A stretch of 64,000 nt of DNA from a virus (lineage: Duplodnaviria > Caudoviricetes). Positions 3,704 through 36,875 of this stretch are shown here, piece after piece; position 1 is the stretch's first letter, and each line of letters begins with the position of its first letter. Made by a program: the position numbers and the translations under genes. Location: the IMG/VR virus record IMGVR_UViG_3300016744_000001, one strand, 5' to 3'. The notes beneath the pieces were generated by a model. That model was not told where the DNA came from. It saw only the letters and a program-made list of their open reading frames with translations, and ran no database searches.

Positions 3704-3719
3704 TATATCACCAAGGTGA
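3704..3719 (+). promoter_or_regulatory. phage early promoter motif TATATCAC-N6-GA
   Basis: Matches a motif repeated 10 times in intergenic DNA; resembles the phiKZ early promoter TATATTAC. Confidence 0.7.
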
Positions 3720-10078: not shown

Positions 10079-12232
10079 ATGGGTATAGTCGAGGAGCGAA
10101 TTTTTGATGACGGCAGACCCTACTACATCATGACAGAGAATCTTCGAGTTCCACCACAGTTGTGGGGACTGGAAATGCCATTGATGTCGTTAGGGGATCA
10201 CGTCTCATCTCAGCGAATCAATATGTTCACCACTAACATTGCGCAAGCCCTGATCATTAACGGTGCGGAGATGCCCCAGGTAGCATCTGGGTGTGAACGT
10301 GAGTACATGAAGTACACGTTCAATCCGACTCGTTTTGAACAGGATGGTCTTGTGCTCATGACCATACCGAAATTCCGAGTGAACGTTGGTATGGATCAGA
10401 TCGGGTACTGCCCACAGTATCTGGTAGTGTATCTCGGTGACACTGACAAACAGGTGCATTGCATGTGGGTGTCAGCCTATTCTCAGGGAACAAATGGGTT
10501 TGGTTGGGAGAACACCATCAACACATCGATGATGACTCCCAATACCCCAGTACGCAAAGACACCTGCATTGCGCATTCCAGAGCAGTGCAAGGGTCGAAG
10601 TATTGCCCTGGGTTGAACCTCAACGTCTGTTATGGTACCTTTTCGGAAACCGTTGAAGATGCAATTGGGATTTCAGAATCAGCGGCGAAACGAATTGTCG
10701 CCAAAGGTTACCGGACATTAACGGTGGATGTCCGAAAAGACATGGTCCCATTGAACCGCTACGGAAATGATCTCCACTACAAGTTCATGCCAGACATTGG
10801 TGAACGAGTGGCTGAAGATGGGATCGTCTGCGGTTTTCGTAGAGTGGATGATCTGACGTATTTTGCAGACATGACCCCTGATGCATTATGCAAGTCACAA
10901 CCGATTCATGATGAACTGTTCTTTCAGGTTGATCCTGGTGCTCAGGTTATTGACATTGAAGTTGTGATGAACCCAACCAAGAAAGTCACCACTCCACCTT
11001 TTGTGTTCAGCCAGGTGGAGAAGTATCGTGGTGAAACGTATGCATTTTACGAACACATCCTGCAGGTGTACAAGCAGGAATGTGTCGACAAAGGTCGTGA
11101 ACCTGGACCTGAGTTCTCCACATTGGTCACGTATGCCGCACGATATCTCAGAACGATCAAACGCAAGGTGCTTGGCCAGACCGCAAAGAGCCAAGCCAAG
11201 TTCAAAAAGAGGGACGCACAGATCGCATTCATGCAGATCAAGATTGTGTTGAAGTACAACATCGCACCGTCTCTTGGCTCCAAGTTGACTTGTCGGTCAG
11301 CGAATAAAGGCGTTGCTTCAGTGATCATCCCTGATGAACACATGCCAGTCAACGATTACGGTGTTCGAGCAGACATGCTTATATCACCGATGGCGATCCC
11401 GAATCGAATGAATCCATCACAGCTGTATGAAGTATTCATCTCCTGTGTGTGTGACGTTGTTCTGAAAAGAATGCGAGCACAGCAAAGTTTGGATGCAGCC
11501 TACGACATGATGCTGGAATTGTTCGAGGATATCAATCCGGCGTATGCCAAGCTGATTGACACCAAGATCTTTCCGACGAAAAAAGAAAAGCTGATGTTCG
11601 CTGACACAGCAATTAAGTCGGATTATCTGATTGTCGTAGTGCCACCATTTTTGGACAATATCTCTCCTGAATGGGTATTGGCCATGCGGGATAAATACCG
11701 CATCCGGGTCACCCCAGTCACGTACAACAAACTAGACCGTAAAGGTAAGGTCATCCGAAAGATCAGAACCAAACGAAGCTTGTTCATCGGTAAGAAGTAC
11801 GTGTACTTGCTTTGTAAGGTTCCGTTCTGCAAGAGCAGCGGCTTGGGTTTTGTGAACCAATGGGGTGTACCAATCACAGTAAAAGACACTGTGACAAAAT
11901 CAATGACCCCAATCTCGCAGACGTCCATCCGTCTGGGTGAAGATGAAACCAGAAACACAATGGTCAATCTTGGCCCGGCAATGGCATCCAGACTTTTGGG
12001 GATTTATGCAAACTCCCCAGAAGCAACTGGGATCTTGGCAGATATGCTTTTGGAAGAACAGCATCCGACAAGGATTCAGTTTATTCCAAAGACCAATGAA
12101 TTCATTCAGGACCACAGTCGAACAATCGCAGCGATGCACGCAATCATGAATGTTTGCGGGATTGACTTGCGAGAATCTGTGGCCACTGAGGAAGACATGG
12201 AAACGCTGTTCCTGGGAGAAGATAATGCTTAG
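10079..12232 (+). CDS. non-virion RNA polymerase beta subunit, C-terminal part (phiKZ gp71-73-like)
   Basis: SSQRINM, GLNLNVCY..EDAIGISES, GSKLTCRSANKGV, P.NDYGVRAD, NRMN and RLGEDE motifs. Confidence 0.9.
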   Translation: MGIVEERIFDDGRPYYIMTENLRVPPQLWGLEMPLMSLGDHVSSQRINMFTTNIAQALIINGAEMPQVASGCEREYMKYTFNPTRFEQDGLVLMTIPKFRVNVGMDQIGYCPQYLVVYLGDTDKQVHCMWVSAYSQGTNGFGWENTINTSMMTPNTPVRKDTCIAHSRAVQGSKYCPGLNLNVCYGTFSETVEDAIGISESAAKRIVAKGYRTLTVDVRKDMVPLNRYGNDLHYKFMPDIGERVAEDGIVCGFRRVDDLTYFADMTPDALCKSQPIHDELFFQVDPGAQVIDIEVVMNPTKKVTTPPFVFSQVEKYRGETYAFYEHILQVYKQECVDKGREPGPEFSTLVTYAARYLRTIKRKVLGQTAKSQAKFKKRDAQIAFMQIKIVLKYNIAPSLGSKLTCRSANKGVASVIIPDEHMPVNDYGVRADMLISPMAIPNRMNPSQLYEVFISCVCDVVLKRMRAQQSLDAAYDMMLELFEDINPAYAKLIDTKIFPTKKEKLMFADTAIKSDYLIVVVPPFLDNISPEWVLAMRDKYRIRVTPVTYNKLDRKGKVIRKIRTKRSLFIGKKYVYLLCKVPFCKSSGLGFVNQWGVPITVKDTVTKSMTPISQTSIRLGEDETRNTMVNLGPAMASRLLGIYANSPEATGILADMLLEEQHPTRIQFIPKTNEFIQDHSRTIAAMHAIMNVCGIDLRESVATEEDMETLFLGEDNA

Positions 12233-27468: not shown

Positions 27469-28168
27469 TGAGCTTCTTGAAGAACTTTTTTGGGAAGAAG
27501 TGAAGCAGTTGGATGCACCGTCAACTGCCCGGGCAGCTGAACTACAAGAGTATTTTGCGGAGCGGTGTATTGACCTTGATGGTTTCCTACGAGTGGAACA
27601 CATCTTTGATTTTCTGGTCAATCATGCAAAGTGCGAATGGGTGCTGGCGAAGTTTATGTTGTTCAAAGGTGCCGAGTACAAGGTGTGGCGCAACAAGGGG
27701 AAGAACTGGTTGCAACGGTTATTCCGAGTTACCCAGACACCAGGGTTTGACATGGATGACCAGCTCCGGTACCTGCGAAGGTTTATCAATAGTTGTCGGT
27801 TGATCAAAGCTGATGATGATTCTTGGATACAAGCGTATCCAAAAACAATTGACAAGACAATGCCCATGTTTGACCAGCTAAACTATGAAGTATCCAGAGA
27901 CTGTTTGCGGTGTTTGGACTTCATTGATCCTGATTACATTTTCATTACCAGCCAGAAATCTGGTGAAGCCTTACTCATGATTCGTGCGGTCAATCTGGCA
28001 TTTGAGATTGGCCGGCGGGTTTATGAGAAACAAAAGGCTCAGCTTAAGGTTGAAGCAGAAGCACAAATGAAATTGGGAAAACCACCCAGAAAATCGAGGA
28101 AAGTGCATGGCATTCGACTTAACTACCCTCAAAGTCGTAAAGGTAAAAGACCTTCCGTCGGTAAATGA
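27452..28168 (+). CDS. hypothetical protein (paralog of previous gene)
   Basis: MPMFDQLNYE...IRAVNLAF; GGAGG RBS. Confidence 0.75.
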   Translation: MDKTNSELLEELFWEEVKQLDAPSTARAAELQEYFAERCIDLDGFLRVEHIFDFLVNHAKCEWVLAKFMLFKGAEYKVWRNKGKNWLQRLFRVTQTPGFDMDDQLRYLRRFINSCRLIKADDDSWIQAYPKTIDKTMPMFDQLNYEVSRDCLRCLDFIDPDYIFITSQKSGEALLMIRAVNLAFEIGRRVYEKQKAQLKVEAEAQMKLGKPPRKSRKVHGIRLNYPQSRKGKRPSVGK

Positions 28169-30014
28169 CTTTGAAGGGATACAGCAGGTATACAAAAAGT
28201 TGGTGACGTTTCTACAGCAGTGTGCTGACACGTACTACAATGATTCACGAACGATCATCACTGATGGTGAGTATGATGCCTTGATGGATCGACTTGCCCT
28301 GTATGAACAATACTACCCAATTCTTGTCGACCCAAAGTCACCCACCAGAACAGTGGGTGCTTCAGTGACAATTCGGGAAAATGAATCGATCGTGGAACAC
28401 AAACCAGCCCTGCAGTCTTTGGCAAAAACCAACACAGTGGAAGAGCTGCAGCACTGGTTGAAAAAATCCTTAGCTGAGTTGGCTAAGTCGGGGATCATGA
28501 CAAAACACATCACAATGTCATTGGAGCACAAGCTCGATGGCTTGATGTGCCGAGCGATTTATCGCAAAGGGGACCTGACCAGTTTGTCTTTACGTGGGGA
28601 TGGACACGAAGGAGCTGAAATGATCAACACGATCAAGCTCCTTCGCAAACGTCCTGACTTTAGGTTGAAAGGACTTCCTTTACGGGTTGTACCAATGCCG
28701 CCAGATCCACAGTGGGATGGTGATTATGTCACCAACTTCTTGACCCCACCGGAGTACCTGGATATCTGTGGAGAGTTGGTGATCTCAAGAGATGACTTCA
28801 AAGCAGTTAACAAACTGCTGATGAACAATGGTCAACCACCATACCCCACACCACGGCATGCTGCCGGGGCATTGGTGAGTTTGAGATCATTCAACTATTT
28901 GACCTTCGTATTGCATTCTGTCAACAGTTTGCAAATCAAAGATGGTCGCAAGCAGATTGAGGTGTTTGAGAACTATCTGGATGCCGTGGCTTGGTTGACA
29001 ACGACCAGCCATTTCAGAACAGTTCCATTCATGCCAATCCGGCTGAAGGATCATGACTACTGGGACCAGATCATACAGAATCTGAGTATCCTTGCTGAGC
29101 GCCGGAAGAACGATCCAGAGTTCACCACTGATGGTGCCGTACTCAAGTTTACAGAGACTGCGCACAGAGAACTTCTTGGTAAGACTCGGAAAGCACCACG
29201 CTGGGCAATTGCGTTCAAGTTCCCGAATGAAGCTGCAACCACCAAGTTGTTAGATGTTGCATGGGGGATTGGACGCACTGGTGTGCTCACTCCGGTTGCT
29301 CAGCTTGAACCAGTTGAGATTGGTAATGTCTGTATTACCAAAGCCACGATCAGCAATCCCTTTATCCTTAAGAAACTTGACTTGCACATCAACGACCATG
29401 TCTTGGTGCATCGAGCGAATGATGTCATTCCAAAGATTCTTGGTGCGATTCCAGAATTGAGGGATGAAACCGTGAAAAAGATTGAAGTTCCTGAGCACTG
29501 TTTTATTTGTGGTGAGGAACTGAAGATCATTGGGTCGGAACTGTATTGCCCCAATCGGCAGTGTAATGGTCAGTTGTTGGCACAATTGGCATACGCAGCA
29601 TCTCGGGCAGTATTCGATCTCAAGTTCATGAGTCAAAAATTGATCTCAGGATTGTTTGAGAGCGGCGTTGTGTCCAGACCCGAACACTTCTTCATGATTA
29701 CGAAAAAAGACGTTCCTGAGTCAATCTCATGCTCTCCTGCGGTACTCAAGACTGTCTTCAAATACATCACTCGTTCCAGAGAGAAGAAGCTCACCCCAGT
29801 GACTGCGTTGATGTCACTGTCAATTCCGTTGCTGAGTAAGGCTTCATGTGAAGAGGTGATTCACCATGTTGGATCACTTCGTAGGTTACTTTCAACACGA
29901 GTGGATAAAGAGTTGTTAAGGAAAAGCAAGATGTGGAGAACGCTGTACGACTACATGAGTGATGAGCAAATTAAAACTTCACTCAAGGTATTCAGTGATA
30001 TGCTTGAAAAATAG
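28107..30014 (+). CDS. ligA: NAD-dependent DNA ligase (no obvious BRCT domain)
   Basis: YY..ITDGEYD, EHKLDG, DGAVLK, PRWAIAFKF, GRTGVLTP, RANDVIP motifs and C4 Zn finger. Confidence 0.95.
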   Translation: MAFDLTTLKVVKVKDLPSVNDFEGIQQVYKKLVTFLQQCADTYYNDSRTIITDGEYDALMDRLALYEQYYPILVDPKSPTRTVGASVTIRENESIVEHKPALQSLAKTNTVEELQHWLKKSLAELAKSGIMTKHITMSLEHKLDGLMCRAIYRKGDLTSLSLRGDGHEGAEMINTIKLLRKRPDFRLKGLPLRVVPMPPDPQWDGDYVTNFLTPPEYLDICGELVISRDDFKAVNKLLMNNGQPPYPTPRHAAGALVSLRSFNYLTFVLHSVNSLQIKDGRKQIEVFENYLDAVAWLTTTSHFRTVPFMPIRLKDHDYWDQIIQNLSILAERRKNDPEFTTDGAVLKFTETAHRELLGKTRKAPRWAIAFKFPNEAATTKLLDVAWGIGRTGVLTPVAQLEPVEIGNVCITKATISNPFILKKLDLHINDHVLVHRANDVIPKILGAIPELRDETVKKIEVPEHCFICGEELKIIGSELYCPNRQCNGQLLAQLAYAASRAVFDLKFMSQKLISGLFESGVVSRPEHFFMITKKDVPESISCSPAVLKTVFKYITRSREKKLTPVTALMSLSIPLLSKASCEEVIHHVGSLRRLLSTRVDKELLRKSKMWRTLYDYMSDEQIKTSLKVFSDMLEK

Positions 30015-30038
30015 CGTGATCCATTCTTAAGTTGCAAA

Positions 30039-30054
30039 CATATTACTTAGGTGA
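30039..30054 (+). promoter_or_regulatory. phage early promoter driving the structured non-coding region
   Basis: CATATTAC-ttaggt-GA; no RBS/ORF follows. Confidence 0.65.
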
Positions 30055-30735
30055 GAGTCATGACCAAGAGTTAAATCTCACCTATCTTTGTGCGATACGA
30101 CAGTGTTGCACTTCAATGCTACCGAGACACTGTCTTGGTGGTCAGGAGAATGTGGTACAGAGTTGCGCGAGACTTCTGGATGTCCAATATCGCAGATGGG
30201 AAGTCGCAGTCCATCGGGTAAAAAGATCCACGTTCTGGCGAGTAGTTATCATGCGCATGATAGCCTCTTGCTTACCTGTCACGGCGTTTGGTCACCAGAT
30301 GCCGTTTGCGCGGACCAAGTCTGCGCCGTATGCTGGCCGGAAGCTTCCGGCACCCGATGATGTATCGGGTTCAAACGCGGCACGCCCTATGCGGCCCGCC
30401 GCAACACACAGCGGGCGGGGAATTGGAAATGCTTCCTACCCCGCCCGGTTATAAGAACACAGGGCTTTGGCAAACCCTGGCCATCGGGTAGTAACTCGTT
30501 GGTAAGCCACTATGAATGAGGATCGACGTGTCCTCAAGCCGTGCGCCTGGGCTCATTTGAGTGGGCGCTTGCGGTACTCCAACGTCATGCAAAACCAAGC
30601 GATTGGTTTACCTCCCCATCCCGAAAGGTGTTGCGAGCGACCACTTGTTGCCGCGCTCTGTGATACAATCTCCATGCGTGGAGACGTGCTGCTACTTCAA
30701 CTCGTAGTTGCATGAGAGGGGTGGGGAGGGTTTTA
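30053..30735 (+). ncRNA. candidate large structured ncRNA (~680 nt), family unassigned
   Basis: More than 12 consecutive stems with G-U pairs; promoter upstream; closing stem 30611-30622/30718-30729 followed by a T-tract. Confidence 0.65.
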
Positions 30736-30781
30736 ATTTGTTGTTTTCTGACTGGTCTATAAACCAGTAGAGGAGACGCGT

Positions 30782-30982
30782 ATGCTTGAGCTGTATTGCC
30801 GAATCGCTCAATACTGCGCTGACCTGGTGAGTTCAATTGGTTTCCCCCATAGGCCAAGTTATTCGGTGATGGTCACTGAATTCCGAACTGCTAGGGTAAA
30901 TTGTAATCTCGTTCTCTTTTGCTGCGCGCAGGACAAAAGCGTCCTGGTCTTTGATGCACAGACAGAGGGTGTCTGCAGCTAA
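30782..30982 (+). CDS. possible small Cys-rich ORF
   Basis: GAGGAG RBS, but it overlaps a strong hairpin. Confidence 0.3.
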   Translation: MLELYCRIAQYCADLVSSIGFPHRPSYSVMVTEFRTARVNCNLVLFCCAQDKSVLVFDAQTEGVCS

Positions 30983-31121
30983 AGACCAGTCCTACACTCG
31001 GCATGTGAACTGGAATACGGTTTACGGGGGACTAGAGGAATTTAGGAATTTTCGTCCTCTGGTCCCCCTCAGTCAAAAAACAACAAGTTTCTTTCGTTAA
31101 CAATCTAAAAGGAACAATGTC

Positions 31122-31388
31122 ATGGTCCGTAAAAGTTTCTTTGAAAAGCTGTTGAAGTTTCGCTGTCCCTCTTGTGGCGCGGTTGACAACAACAAGTTGG
31201 CTTTCCGAATGGAATGCAGTCGTCCCAGCAAAGATGAAAAAGATAACGGCCGCCGAGATTTCTCTGTGGTCGTCAGGTGCAAATGTGGTAAGGTTTGTAA
31301 GGCATTTAGCATGCCTTTTGACGGACTCACCGCTGCACAGCAGGATGCTGCCGAAGACACCTTCATGTCGCTCTTGTTTAAAGGCTAA
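31122..31388 (+). CDS. zinc-finger protein
   Basis: CPSC...CKC..C; AAGGA upstream. Confidence 0.6.
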   Translation: MVRKSFFEKLLKFRCPSCGAVDNNKLAFRMECSRPSKDEKDNGRRDFSVVVRCKCGKVCKAFSMPFDGLTAAQQDAAEDTFMSLLFKG

Positions 31389-31396
31389 AAATTTAT

Positions 31397-31473
31397 CGGA
31401 ATGTGGCGCAGTCTGGTAGCGCACTTGCTTTGGGAGCAAGACGTCGAAGGTTCAAATCCTTTCATTCCGACCA
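31397..31473 (+). tRNA. tRNA-Pro(TGG)
   Basis: Cloverleaf with anticodon arm CTTGC-TT-TGG-GA-GCAAG, TTCAAAT T-loop and encoded CCA. Confidence 0.95.
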
Positions 31474-31492
31474 AAATTATCAAGGAACGATC

Positions 31493-31675
31493 ATGTCGTA
31501 TTTGCATGAGTGTACCCTTTGTGAAGTCACCGAGGAAACTGCTGAAAAAGCGATTCTCCCCGCTGGCTGGGTAGCGTTTAAAACCGCCGAGACAGAAGAA
31601 ACTTGTCCCTGGCCGGTGGAGCTTTGCAAGAGTTGCACCGATCTGGCTGTCGCCTACCGTAAGGCGCATCCTTAG
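31493..31675 (+). CDS. small zinc-binding protein
   Basis: CTLC...CKSC; AAGGA RBS. Confidence 0.65.
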   Translation: MSYLHECTLCEVTEETAEKAILPAGWVAFKTAETEETCPWPVELCKSCTDLAVAYRKAHP

Positions 31676-31686
31676 TTGATTCATTT

Positions 31687-31771: not shown

Positions 31772-31799
31772 TTCATTCAACATGATTCTGGAGAGTATC

Positions 31800-31976
31800 A
31801 TGCCTGAAGGCAAAGAAACTGTTGTTCGTGGTCTACCGAATCCCATTGATTGGTTTGGCAGTTACCAAAAAGTGTTTGACGCTCTGGAGAGCATCTACCT
31901 GGATTCTTTGACCAAACCCGGCGAGCAGTCTGAAGAAATTCAGAAGAAATTCAAGGAACTGTTCCCCGAGTACTAG
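31800..31976 (+). CDS. small hypothetical protein
   Basis: GGAG before ATG at 31800 (alternative start 31782). Confidence 0.55.
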   Translation: MPEGKETVVRGLPNPIDWFGSYQKVFDALESIYLDSLTKPGEQSEEIQKKFKELFPEY

Positions 31977-32129
31977 CCCAATTGGTTAGCTGGGTTGCGG
32001 AGTTTTATAGATCTGATCAATCGCAAAATCTCGGCCATGGTGCAGTATGATTTTGTACTCAGCAGATAACCAAGTAAGAACCTGATCATTCTTCGCCCAG
32101 CTGCATTTAACATCAAGATAGGGAAATTC

Positions 32130-32354
32130 ATGAATACGAAACCTACTAAGGCTGCAAAAGCGTTTGTCGATACCAAAGCTCACTTGTTTGAAGAAGAGAT
32201 CTTCATGTTTGTCGCAGCTTCCAGAAAGGCTGCTGAAAAGGAACTGCGTGAGCGTTTCCCCAAACTGTGGATCGAAAAGACCGACGGGACGTATCGCTCG
32301 GAGAAAGACGGAGAATGGCTCCTCTTCATCCGTGAAGAACCTGTGATCGGTTAA
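32130..32354 (+). CDS. small hypothetical protein
   Basis: 74 aa with coding-like composition. Confidence 0.6.
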   Translation: MNTKPTKAAKAFVDTKAHLFEEEIFMFVAASRKAAEKELRERFPKLWIEKTDGTYRSEKDGEWLLFIREEPVIG

Positions 32355-32360
32355 AGATTT

Positions 32361-32730
32361 CCGGCAGGGGTACTTAAAGCCGTGTGAAATGTCATACCGC
32401 TTAAATTGGGTATTTGTAGGTTTGATGGACCTCTCCTACTTAACCCTGCCGGTCCAAATTGAGAGTCATGGACCCCTTCCAATATCGACCTCCTTGCTGT
32501 GCTGCGTCGCATTGGCTCCTATCCCCATCATGACTCTCATTCATTTCTCTTCCTGCTCGGTAGCCGAAGTTGCTCCCCCTACCAGCTGACTGAGGTCTTG
32601 CAGGAAGAGAATAAACCTCAATGTTCACCGTCAACAACAGCGTGGTGTCTGATCAATCAACACTCATGTCGAGCACTGAGGTTTTCTTGTTTTATTCTAG
32701 TGGCACCAACCGTCGGGGTTGGTGCCACTA
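32361..32730 (+). ncRNA. tandem array of four stem-closed small RNAs plus a terminal hairpin
   Basis: Units 32361-32452, 32460-32539, 32545-32611 and 32613-32684, each with 9-14 bp pairing between its own ends; hairpin at 32698-32730. Confidence 0.6.
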
Positions 32731-32771
32731 TGACGACAATTTTGAGCATGCATTTTTCTTTTGGAGGAACA

Positions 32772-33317
32772 ATGTTAATCTATACTGGAATTGGCAGTCA
32801 AAAGACTCCACCAGACATGTGCATGCTAATGACTGACATCGCTAAGCAATTAGCAAAACGTTGGTTCTTACGCAGCGGCTATGCTGATGGTGCAGACAAG
32901 GCATTTGGAAAAGGAGCTTATCAAGTTAATGCTCCCCAAGTACATTACCTTCCTTGGGCTGGGTTCAACCATGCACCAAAGGACAATCACATCTTTAAGC
33001 CTTTGGATAAATTGCCTAGCCACTTGGTGCTACAAGCAACTGAGATGGCGGCACAGCTGCACCCCAATTGGGCAGCCTGTGGACAAGGGGCAAGAAAGAT
33101 GCACACCAGAAATATGTTTCAGGTATTGGGAGATGATCTAAATACTCCCACCGACATGGTGGTGTGTTGGACTCCAAAAGGATCTGGTTCTGGTGGTACA
33201 GGGCAAGCAATGCGTTTAGCCAAAAAGTTAGATATTCCAGTCTTCGATTTGGCAATTGCTGGGACTCTGGAGGCAATGTTAATTTTCGTATCTGAAAAAG
33301 AAAACACAGAGGTGTAG
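32772..33317 (+). CDS. DprA-like SLOG-family protein
   Basis: YTGIGSQKTP, LRSGYADGAD, RN..QVLG and GGTGQAMR motifs; GGAGG RBS. Confidence 0.8.
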   Translation: MLIYTGIGSQKTPPDMCMLMTDIAKQLAKRWFLRSGYADGADKAFGKGAYQVNAPQVHYLPWAGFNHAPKDNHIFKPLDKLPSHLVLQATEMAAQLHPNWAACGQGARKMHTRNMFQVLGDDLNTPTDMVVCWTPKGSGSGGTGQAMRLAKKLDIPVFDLAIAGTLEAMLIFVSEKENTEV

Positions 33318-34966: not shown

Positions 34967-35055
34967 GCTACTCATCCCACACCAACTGGTGTGGGATGAG
35001 TATATTTTGTACAAAGTTTTTTCTTTGTATCTAATCAAGAATTTACGAGGTCATT

Positions 35056-36816
35056 ATGAAGTTATCTGTCAAGTTGACAGGCTTGTCAACAACACTGACT
35101 CTGTTTACAATTATCGTTGGGGTACTAGCGATACTTGGAATGTCAAACATTAACCGTGAAACACAAGACTTGGCGAAGAACTGGTTACCATCAGTCAAGT
35201 CAGTCAGTGAGCTGTCAGATGCGGTTAACGAGTTCAGACGAGATCAGTTGGCTAAGATCATTGTCAACATCAACAACAACAATGAGTTAGTTGTTGAGTA
35301 CAACCAGAAGACTGACAATGACTCAGCTCGTGTACAACGGCGAATGGATCGTTATGCGAAGTTGATCAGTGAACCTGAAGAACGAGTGGCGTTTGAGGAT
35401 TTCAAGATCGCTTGGCAAAAGTACATGGTTATCAATCAACGAATTGAAGTCCTGCTGTTACAAAACAAACCACAGGAAGCTGGCACACTGTTGTTTGGGG
35501 ATGCTCGGGTGATCTACAATACGGCACTATCAAATCTGCTTAAAGCGATCTCAATCAATGACCAAGGGTCAAGTCAATCAGCTGCTAAGGCGAGTGACGA
35601 GTACTCTCGTAGCCGATTGATCACATTGATCTTGACAGTAGTGTCCACGCTGATCGCGATCATGTTTTCAGTATTGTTGATCAGAGTAGTTCTCAAACAG
35701 TTGGGGGAAGACCCGGGGTATCTGTACGAAGTCTCCATGGAGATTGCGAATGGAAACCTTGATGTCAAGTTGAAGTCATTTGTGGGTGAGGGTGGTGTAT
35801 ACGGTGCACTCACGAAGATGGTCGCAACTTTGAAAGCTAAGATCAAAGAAGCTGAAGAGAAGTCAGCTCAGGCTGCACAAGAAGCGCAGTTTGCGAAAGA
35901 AGCCACTGCGGTTGCTGAAGAAGCAACTCAGAAAGCTCAACGTGCCAGAGCTGAAGGCATGATGCAAGCGGCAAAACAGCTGGAAGAAGTTGTGACTATT
36001 TTGACAACAGCGTCTGAAGAACTGTCAGCGCAAGTGGAACAATCTCGTCGAGGAGCAGATGATCAGTCTGGTCGGGTACGAGAAACAGCAACTGCAATGG
36101 AAGAGATGAACGCAACTATCTTGGAAGTAGCAGGGAATGCTCAACATGCAGCTGAAGCGTCCACACAGACCAGACAGCAGGCAATTGAGGGTACCACCAT
36201 TGTTGCTGATGTTGTCAAGAGCATTGAGTCCGTCAGAGTCCAGTCAGCTGGGATCAAGTCAGATATGGACATGCTTGGTAAACAAGCACTGGCAATTGGT
36301 CAGATTCTTAATGTGATTGCCGACATTGCCGACCAGACGAACCTGCTTGCTTTGAATGCCGCCATTGAAGCTGCCCGTGCAGGTGATGCTGGTAGAGGGT
36401 TTGCAGTGGTCGCTGATGAGGTTCGTAAACTTGCTGAAAAATCAATGACTGCTACTCAAGAAGTTGGGAAAGCAATCAATGACATTCAGGAAGGAACTAA
36501 AAAGAATATTGCTGGGGTTGAGAGCAACACTGTTGCAATTGAACAGGTAGCTTTGTTGTCAACTCAGTCTGGTGAAGCATTGACCAAAATCCTTGAGTTT
36601 GTTAACCATGTGAACGATCAAGTGCAATCAATTGCCACTGCTTCAGAAGAACAGTCAGCGGCAAGCGAAGAGATCAATCGTTCTGTGGAAGAAGTGGCAA
36701 CAATTTCCAACGAGACATCAGTTGCTATGGAACATGCCTCAGGTTCAGTTGCTAAACTGTTGCAACAAGTTCAAGTACTTCAGAAGCTCATCACTGAATT
36801 GAAATCAGCTAAATAA
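35056..36816 (+). CDS. methyl-accepting chemotaxis protein (four-helix-bundle sensor, Desulfovibrio-like)
   Basis: TM1, NWLPS-type 4HB sensor, TM2, HAMP-like segment, and [38 protein letters not shown]. Confidence 0.95.
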
Positions 36817-36875
36817 TTCATCAGTACTACACCCTGAAGAGGGTGTAGTACTGAGAATCGTAAAGATTTAAGGAA

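Follow-up and report, generated by a model that had tools for sequence, protein, structure and literature searches.

Very large, elaborately folded noncoding RNAs are rare outside the ribosome. Stable non-tRNA RNAs of smaller size are made from the tRNA operon of phage T4, where the species 1 and species 2 RNAs (~120-140 nt) are co-transcribed with the phage tRNAs and freed by the tRNA-processing machinery. Of the larger phage RNAs, GOLLD was reportedly described by Weinberg et al. in 2009. Both GOLLD and ROOL are encoded by phages near tRNA islands, measure 580-800+ nt and have no known function; both also assemble into homo-oligomeric cages whose kissing loops are symmetric and palindromic (PMC12286853). 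The noncoding RNAs published for chimalliviruses are sRNAs of <250 nt (PMC11512511; PMC8244752), and 5'UTR-derived RNAs adjoining tRNAs are known in phage 201phi2-1 (PMC11512511). Here we describe a locus that shares the general characters of GOLLD and ROOL, being phage-encoded, with tRNA genes downstream, 339 conserved pairs and no conserved ORF. It encodes a real, conserved, plus-strand structured noncoding RNA outside the described families.

The whole stretch of DNA that we analysed, 64 kb long and referred to below as the window, is jumbo phage DNA from a distant phiKZ relative. Besides an RNA polymerase subunit and a DNA ligase (see the list below), it encodes a chemoreceptor, a giant tail-fibre-like protein and a DprA-like protein. 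The window sequence recurs at 99.97% identity on a 273-kb ENA contig and on one JGI contig, and the samples in which the phage is present are ENA ERZ27250306, SRR10842850, ERR7015370 and JGI 2100351000. We found no close relatives of the phage among GenBank phages: blastn of the RNA against them returned no match, and megablast of 10 kb returned tRNA matches only. The nearest relatives of the chemoreceptor, a methyl-accepting chemotaxis protein (window 35056-36816), are Desulfovibrionaceae and related MAG proteins at about 43-54% identity, which hints at a Desulfovibrionaceae lineage as the host. A full-length chemoreceptor match (50% identity) in an 'Acidobacteriota' MAG raised the idea of a mis-binned relative, which was unsupported, the MAG ligase being a normal bacterial LigA on another contig. 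Long perfect hairpins stand 3' of genes at 34969-35002 and 36821-36854, one with a T-tract and one without; these are probably the usual terminators of the phage, and their form is unlike the end of the RNA described here. The DprA-like ORF (32499-33317) matches its PHROG from residue 92 only and its called homologue in one relative (L011, introduced below) has only 181 aa, so translation may in fact start further downstream. Upstream of this ORF, the conserved stretch 31985-32770 may hold more noncoding RNA.

The features of the locus and its surroundings are the following:

10079-12232: split multisubunit RNA polymerase beta subunit (phrog_3295, E 1e-133; 28% identity to phiKZ-group nvRNAP subunits)
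28107-30014: NAD-dependent DNA ligase, ending at its own stop at 30014, 5' of the RNA
30039-30053, plus strand: promoter-like motif CATATTAC-TTAG-GTG (CATATTAC at 30039-46, then TTAG, then GTG at 30051-53)
30049-30732, plus strand: module 1 of the RNA, ~684 nt, about 27-28 helices (z -9.74; 216 consensus pairs on 3 sequences), comprising hairpins at the 5' end, the long arm 30147-30236, a conserved core, expansion segments that vary, and a multibranch domain at the 3' end
30237-30376, plus strand: conserved core of five hairpins, with the 34-nt invariant block 30281-30314 (alignments including the partial homologue L043)
30377-30459, plus strand: variable region with lineage-specific insertions in hairpins, ~30 nt longer in L012
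30611-30729, plus strand: 3' multibranch domain, a 12-bp stem (30611-30622/30718-30729) around three hairpins
30734-31090, plus strand: module 2, ~357 nt, a closed multibranch domain with a 14-bp hairpin (31026-31068), drawn from covariation and fold
30737-30754, plus strand: U-rich tract UUUGUUGUUUUCUGACUG, 5' strand of the helix closing module 2 and candidate co-transcriptional terminator tail
30782-30982, plus strand: 66-codon ORF with SD-like GAGGAG, inside module 2, its start and SD within conserved helices
31070-31087, plus strand: A-rich tract CAGUCAAAAAACAACAAG, which forms the 3' side of the closing helix and with which the RNA probably ends
31397-31473, plus strand: tRNA-Pro (UGG; ARAGORN, Rfam), which adjoins the RNA in L011 and L012
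31687-31771, plus strand: tRNA-Leu (CAA; ARAGORN, Rfam), which directly follows tRNA-Pro in L011 and L012

A protein search with the adjacent ligase yielded four relatives (99, 90, 84 and 48% identical), whose contigs were retrieved, and in all four the ligase is followed 3' by a gap of 700-1,400 nt that is gene-free as called. L014 has the same sequence as the window. Clear homologues of the RNA are present in L011 (89.6% identity; ligase DNA, 82.5%) and L012 (about 65% identity; ligase DNA, 77.7%). Scanning JGI metagenomes with an RNA 21-mer pattern added L043, a partial fourth homologue that is L012-like and covers the 5' 305 nt only; a second match of the 21-mer, L044, was due to chance and lies inside a bacterial GST-like gene. 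The distinct sequences therefore comprise three of full length (window, L011 and L012) and the partial L043, all from one narrow clade. Because the sequences are few and the clade is narrow, the covariation reported below rests mostly on the diverged L012, and R-scape-type tests have no power on this set.

The original prediction had placed a highly structured plus-strand RNA with no credible ORF at this position, and folding and alignment bear it out. GC content is 0.57-0.58 in the RNA region against about 0.45 in the flanks, and the minimum free energy of 30053-30745 is -300.3 kcal/mol, compared with -241.3 +/- 6.1 for dinucleotide shuffles (z -9.74 on the plus strand; z -4.24 on the reverse strand). 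An RNAalifold consensus of module 1 on the window, L011 and L012 has 216 pairs in 28 helices, with 89.6% of cells paired, and 33 of the 216 pairs carry changes on both sides. Shuffles gave 13.7 +/- 2.8 such double changes, with the observed number reached in 0/500, and sliding the partners by 1-3 columns gave 4-8. The compensatory changes are spread over the helices: they occur in the arm 30147-30236, in 30237-30272, 30352-30370, 30480-30503 and 30685-30714, and in the stem 30611-30622/30718-30729, and helices 25-28, which form the 3' multibranch domain, have 2, 1, 1 and 4 compensatory pairs. In the conserved core, the invariant palindrome AUGCGCAU (30251-30258) forms a hairpin apex atop a covarying stem.

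Every stem named in the original prediction is present in the window where it had been placed, and six of seven are kept as conserved structure in the relatives. The exception is GACAGTGT/ACACTGTC (30100-30134), which is not kept in L012; in its place the consensus has two local hairpins (30090-30111 and 30118-30142). Compensatory changes are present in TATCATG/CATGATA, in ACCCGAT/ATCGGGT and in 30611-30622/30718-30729. Stem CGGGCGGGG/CCCCGCCCG has one compensatory pair, five pairs broken in L012 and 82% of cells paired, and stems GCGCGGAC/GTCTGCGC and GCCGGAA/TTCCGGC are nearly invariant.

We found no ORF in the RNA region that is conserved among the relatives. The 144-codon open frame of the window (a 140-aa ORF from a TTG start) shrinks to 48 codons in L011 and is different in L012. 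The 66-codon ORF of module 2 is annotated as a gene in near-identical contigs and, with 67 codons, in L012, but not in L011. Its substitutions by codon position are 8/13/15 in L011 and 17/16/18 in L012, whereas the ligase control gives 69/27/238 and 93/31/277; substitutions in this ORF and in the RNA are flat across codon positions, compared with a strong third-position excess in the ligase. A word-based search of 5.8 billion proteins for homologues of this ORF returned the window's own protein only, in a search that scored 1 candidate and missed the L012 counterpart. Judging from this substitution pattern, the protein search, and the invariant 34-nt block and the fold and covariation of module 2 (see below), the 66-codon ORF is probably not a protein gene and instead part of the RNA, which would correct the gene calls made in the near-identical contigs and for the 67 codons of L012. 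The frame, the SD and the ATG are nonetheless kept in all three sequences, L012 having an in-frame 3-nt indel, and a small protein or a dual-function RNA may yet be made from it.

The RNA had been expected to run for ~680 nt and to end at a T-tract preceded by a multibranch domain (30611-30622/30718-30729). Both of these elements exist, with the T-tract at 30733-30747, but the T-tract also pairs with 31070-31087, and the predicted length and 3' boundary were not upheld. The U-tract and the downstream A-tract form a helix of 17 pairs (11 + 6 bp, with a bulged C at 30748) that is kept in all three sequences, and in L012 it shows one compensatory change from U-A to C-G and two changes from U-A to U-G. 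Given this covarying partner, the T-tract is probably more than a terminator tail. The helix closes a second structured module, which belongs to the same RNA unit, and therefore the RNA probably spans about 30051-31090, or about 1,040 nt; a short form of ~690 nt may exist alongside it. Module 2 has a z of -5.70 (30756-31100, against shuffles) and 119 consensus pairs, 17 of them with compensatory changes, and its block 30801-30834 is invariant over 34 nt, third codon positions included. The consensus of the whole unit has 339 pairs, of which 46 show double changes, while 44 pairs are G.U in the window; the minimum free energy is -447.7 on the plus strand versus -380.2 on the minus strand.

An early-promoter motif had been predicted to point into this RNA, and it proved real. 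The published consensus is TATATTAC for phiKZ and TATATTACDWHDGTG, i.e. TATATTAC-DWHD-GTG, for 201phi2-1 (PMC7058600, table 2), and positions 30039-30053 fit it with one mismatch, at the first base. The motif is kept in L011 and L012, and L013 carries TATATTAC. Allowing <=1 mismatch, the window contains 29 copies of TATATTAC where 17.8 +/- 3.9 would be expected, and 0/100 shuffles reached 29. About 10 copies of the TATATTAC-like motif are intergenic, on the plus strand and 5' of genes, several of them followed by N4-GTG; intergenic plus-strand motifs of the form TATAT(T/C)AC lie at 3704, 6648, 8080, 10015, 17466, 24216, 30039, 36876, 53578 and 54043. This motif family likely represents promoters of the phage's own polymerase, and by analogy the start site of the RNA would be expected near G30051-G30053.

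The placement of the RNA beside tRNA genes is likewise conserved. In L011, tRNA-Pro begins ~10 nt past the A-tract and tRNA-Leu is directly next. In L012, a 5' tRNA-Pro fragment lies ~10 nt past the A-tract and is followed by an HNH ORF and then by complete tRNA-Pro and tRNA-Leu genes. This part of L012 (13052-13751), with its ~35-nt tRNA-Pro 5' fragment, an ORF of 188 aa that matches HNH_3 and treble-clef domains weakly, and the complete tRNA-Pro, looks like a homing-endonuclease insertion at a tRNA gene. The window has a 302-nt insert (31087-31389) between the RNA and tRNA-Pro that is missing from L011 and L012. Inside it is ORF88 (31122-31388), an 88-aa CxxC...CxC Zn-ribbon ORF that is 47% identical (E 2e-27) to an uncalled 81-aa ORF in the post-ligase gap of L013 (12157-12402). 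The stretches 31474-31685 and 31774-31984, which flank tRNA-Leu and in which short ORFs of 60-71 aa are called, are missing from L011, which has 7 nt between tRNA-Pro and tRNA-Leu. No further promoter motif was found between 30046 and the tRNAs, including between the modules, and the simplest reading of this arrangement would be that promoter, giant RNA and tRNAs form one transcription unit.

To the extent that we could search, the RNA is confined to this clade. In L013, whose ligase is 48% identical, neither blastn nor two covariance models (R1, built on the conserved core, and R2, on the 3' domain) detected an RNA homologue at the same place. A MAFFT alignment of the L013 gap as a homologue was rejected beyond the promoter and first hairpin, because blastn and both models were blank; the middle of the gap encodes the Zn-ribbon ORF. 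With no detectable homologue in L013, the RNA is therefore dispensable for the phage group as a whole. The post-ligase gap of L013 (11945-12625) is itself strongly structured (z -5.0): TATATTAC and a first hairpin like that of the window RNA stand at its 5' end, and a long perfect hairpin stands at its 3' end. With R1, full-length members reach 145-159 bits and the truncated match in L043 reaches 112 bits; over 37 loci, R1 and R2 found family members only, and R1 found none over 5 whole jumbo-phage records and 151 Desulfovibrionaceae genomes (best E 0.03, which is chance level). Scans of IMG/VR gave no close relatives with ligase peptide patterns and nothing with three RNA patterns; ligase patterns found nothing in JGI metagenomes, and an RNA pattern found nothing in GTDB genomes. 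Searching for additional contigs by way of short ligase fragments and the 66-aa ORF brought no further variants.

We also compared the locus with described RNA families. At gathering score, Rfam 15 finds five tRNAs only in the whole window. A permissive cmscan (E up to 10) of 29900-31500, of L012 11930-12750 and of L013 11900-12700 found no GOLLD, ROOL, OLE or raiA. Group I and group II introns had no Rfam match at E up to 10 either, and the RNA is intergenic, the ligase ending at its own stop. Neither OLE, raiA nor HEARO/omega RNAs had an Rfam match, and the neighbours are the ligase, the Zn-ribbon ORF, the tRNAs and the DprA-like gene, not the ole-associated proteins or IscB/TnpB that go with such RNAs. 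Rfam found no RNase P RNA, tmRNA, 6S or SRP RNA, and ARAGORN no tmRNA, in agreement with the lack of tmRNA, RNase P and intron hallmarks in the original prediction. A ZMP/ZTP riboswitch was rejected, as the score of 19.1 bits (E 2.3) falls short of the gathering cut-off of 39 and the pseudoknot element CGCCUGGGC reads UGCGCAGAG in L012. With no Rfam 15 match on three sequences, the RNA is not a member of GOLLD, ROOL, OLE, raiA, RNase P, tmRNA or the introns. The original prediction had left the choice between a known giant class and a new one; the new class holds, but membership of GOLLD or ROOL does not, the permissive search being blank on both the window and its diverged homologue.

Several other explanations deserve weight. 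The RNA might be a cis-acting structured leader of ~1 kb for the tRNAs (and, in the window, for ORF88), which would tune downstream stability, processing order and timing and have no function once cut. The promoter is common to RNA and tRNAs with no clear terminator between them, and in the absence of a typical phage terminator hairpin 3' of the RNA a purely cis role is conceivable; L013, from the same promoter position, has a ~210-nt structured leader before its Zn-ribbon ORF, and the 5'UTR-derived RNAs by tRNAs in 201phi2-1 set a precedent (PMC11512511). However, some 28 conserved hairpins plus invariant blocks of 34 nt far exceed the needs of any known leader, two closed, self-contained modules resemble independent folding units, and L011 has no protein gene between RNA and tRNAs to regulate, so that we consider a pure leader unlikely, though it deserves to be kept in mind. 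Somewhat more doubtful is a division of the locus into two genes, a ~690-nt RNA ending at the U-tract and a separate ~330-nt RNA or a 66-aa gene with a structured mRNA. A 12-bp GC-rich stem followed by GUUUUAAUUUGUUGUUUU has the geometry of an intrinsic terminator, termination could come first since the A-tract partner is made ~330 nt later, and the SD GAGGAG, the ATG and the frame persist in three sequences. Against such a division stand the 17-pair helix found in all three sequences with its compensatory change, the lack of a promoter motif between the modules, the lack of codon periodicity in the 66-codon ORF, for which the word-based search found its own protein only (missing the L012 counterpart), and the long perfect hairpins that are recognised as terminators elsewhere in the phage.

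Two remaining explanations appear far weaker. It is very improbable that a highly diverged GOLLD, ROOL, OLE, group I or group II intron or RNase P was missed by the covariance models: size and tRNA-side position are like those of GOLLD and ROOL, and Rfam models built from other lineages can miss remote members, yet cmscan at E up to 10 was blank for these families on the window, L012 and L013, and we see no flanking exons, intron-type ORF or domain V, nor any tmRNA by ARAGORN. Hardly credible at all is a DNA-level element (an origin, a packaging site or a cluster of cruciforms), or coding in an unusual frame or code. Inverted repeats are many, and the minus strand at z -4.24 also folds better than shuffles, but the plus strand is favoured, being 67 kcal/mol more stable, and its 44 G.U pairs would be A.C on the other strand. 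Furthermore, 34 pairs are kept via one-sided changes, many through G.U, the compensatory changes preserve RNA pairs, and no frame is conserved.

The reading that we favour, with a probability of roughly 60%, sees in the locus a gene, specific to this lineage, for a very large noncoding RNA of two modules (30049-30732 and 30734-31090) that would work as a stable, trans-acting RNA particle; its transcription, processing route, stability and action in trans we infer from sequence. In this scheme, the phage RNA polymerase would transcribe rightward from the phiKZ-type promoter at 30039-30053, and the giant RNA would head an RNA operon continuing into tRNA-Pro and tRNA-Leu. A fraction of the polymerases may terminate at the U-tract that follows the 12-bp stem, leaving the ~690-nt form. 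Upon read-through, RNase P would cut at the 5' end of tRNA-Pro and release the ~1,040-nt form, with its U-tract locked to the A-tract. The freed RNA could then act in trans as a stable folded particle, be it a scaffold, a decoy or a self-assembling complex, the role that GOLLD and ROOL are likewise assumed to play in phages. A bolder version, which we regard as distinctly improbable, has the RNA as founder of a new class of giant ornate phage RNAs, ~1 kb long and with two closed modules, in a phiKZ-like jumbo phage using RNA polymerases of its own; as GOLLD and ROOL do, it would form an RNA-only homo-oligomer, for example via AUGCGCAU, and it would be made with the phage tRNAs at the onset of infection. 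The invariant palindromic apex AUGCGCAU is a lead towards such self-association and nothing more.

The RNA is larger than it appeared at first reading, at about 700 to 1,040 nt between the ligase gene and two tRNA genes. The few giants known from phages, GOLLD and ROOL, are striking RNA-only cages, held by kissing loops and A-minor contacts, whose function is still unknown, and an unrelated RNA of the same kind would make big tRNA-linked RNAs a recurring phage invention and not two oddities. An RNA of this type in a phiKZ-like phage, with a recognisable promoter and directly 5' of tRNAs, would also be a new subject for cryo-EM and functional studies.

How the RNA relates to the described systems can be summarised as follows. 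Like GOLLD, which is encoded by phages or prophages and exceeds 800 nt in many members, it has many helices and no ORF, adjoins tRNA genes, and combines a conserved part with a more variable one. It differs in that it has no match, in sequence or structure, to the GOLLD covariance model (a conserved 3' half with helices and pseudoknots), in that the phage encoding it is phiKZ-like and has multisubunit RNA polymerases of its own, and in its narrow distribution, only 4 distinct sequences having been found. ROOL, a phage or prophage RNA of ~580 nt, likewise lies near tRNA islands and has a complex fold and no known protein partner (PMC5737381, PMC12286853), but its model is unmatched here, and the window RNA, with its two closed modules, reaches up to twice its length. 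The sRNAs of phiKZ and 201phi2-1 (sRNA005; PMC11512511) belong to phages of the same broad group and are made from phage promoters, and one lies directly 5' of a tRNA; however, they measure <250 nt with one to few hairpins, compared with 700-1,040 nt and about 28 hairpins, a distinction drawn by size and description. The species 1 and 2 RNAs of T4 can be likened to the window RNA by setting and description, although they are far shorter. Taken together, the window RNA resembles GOLLD and ROOL in setting only, and we take it to represent a new and rare family of large, ornate phage RNAs that are apparently made together with tRNAs.
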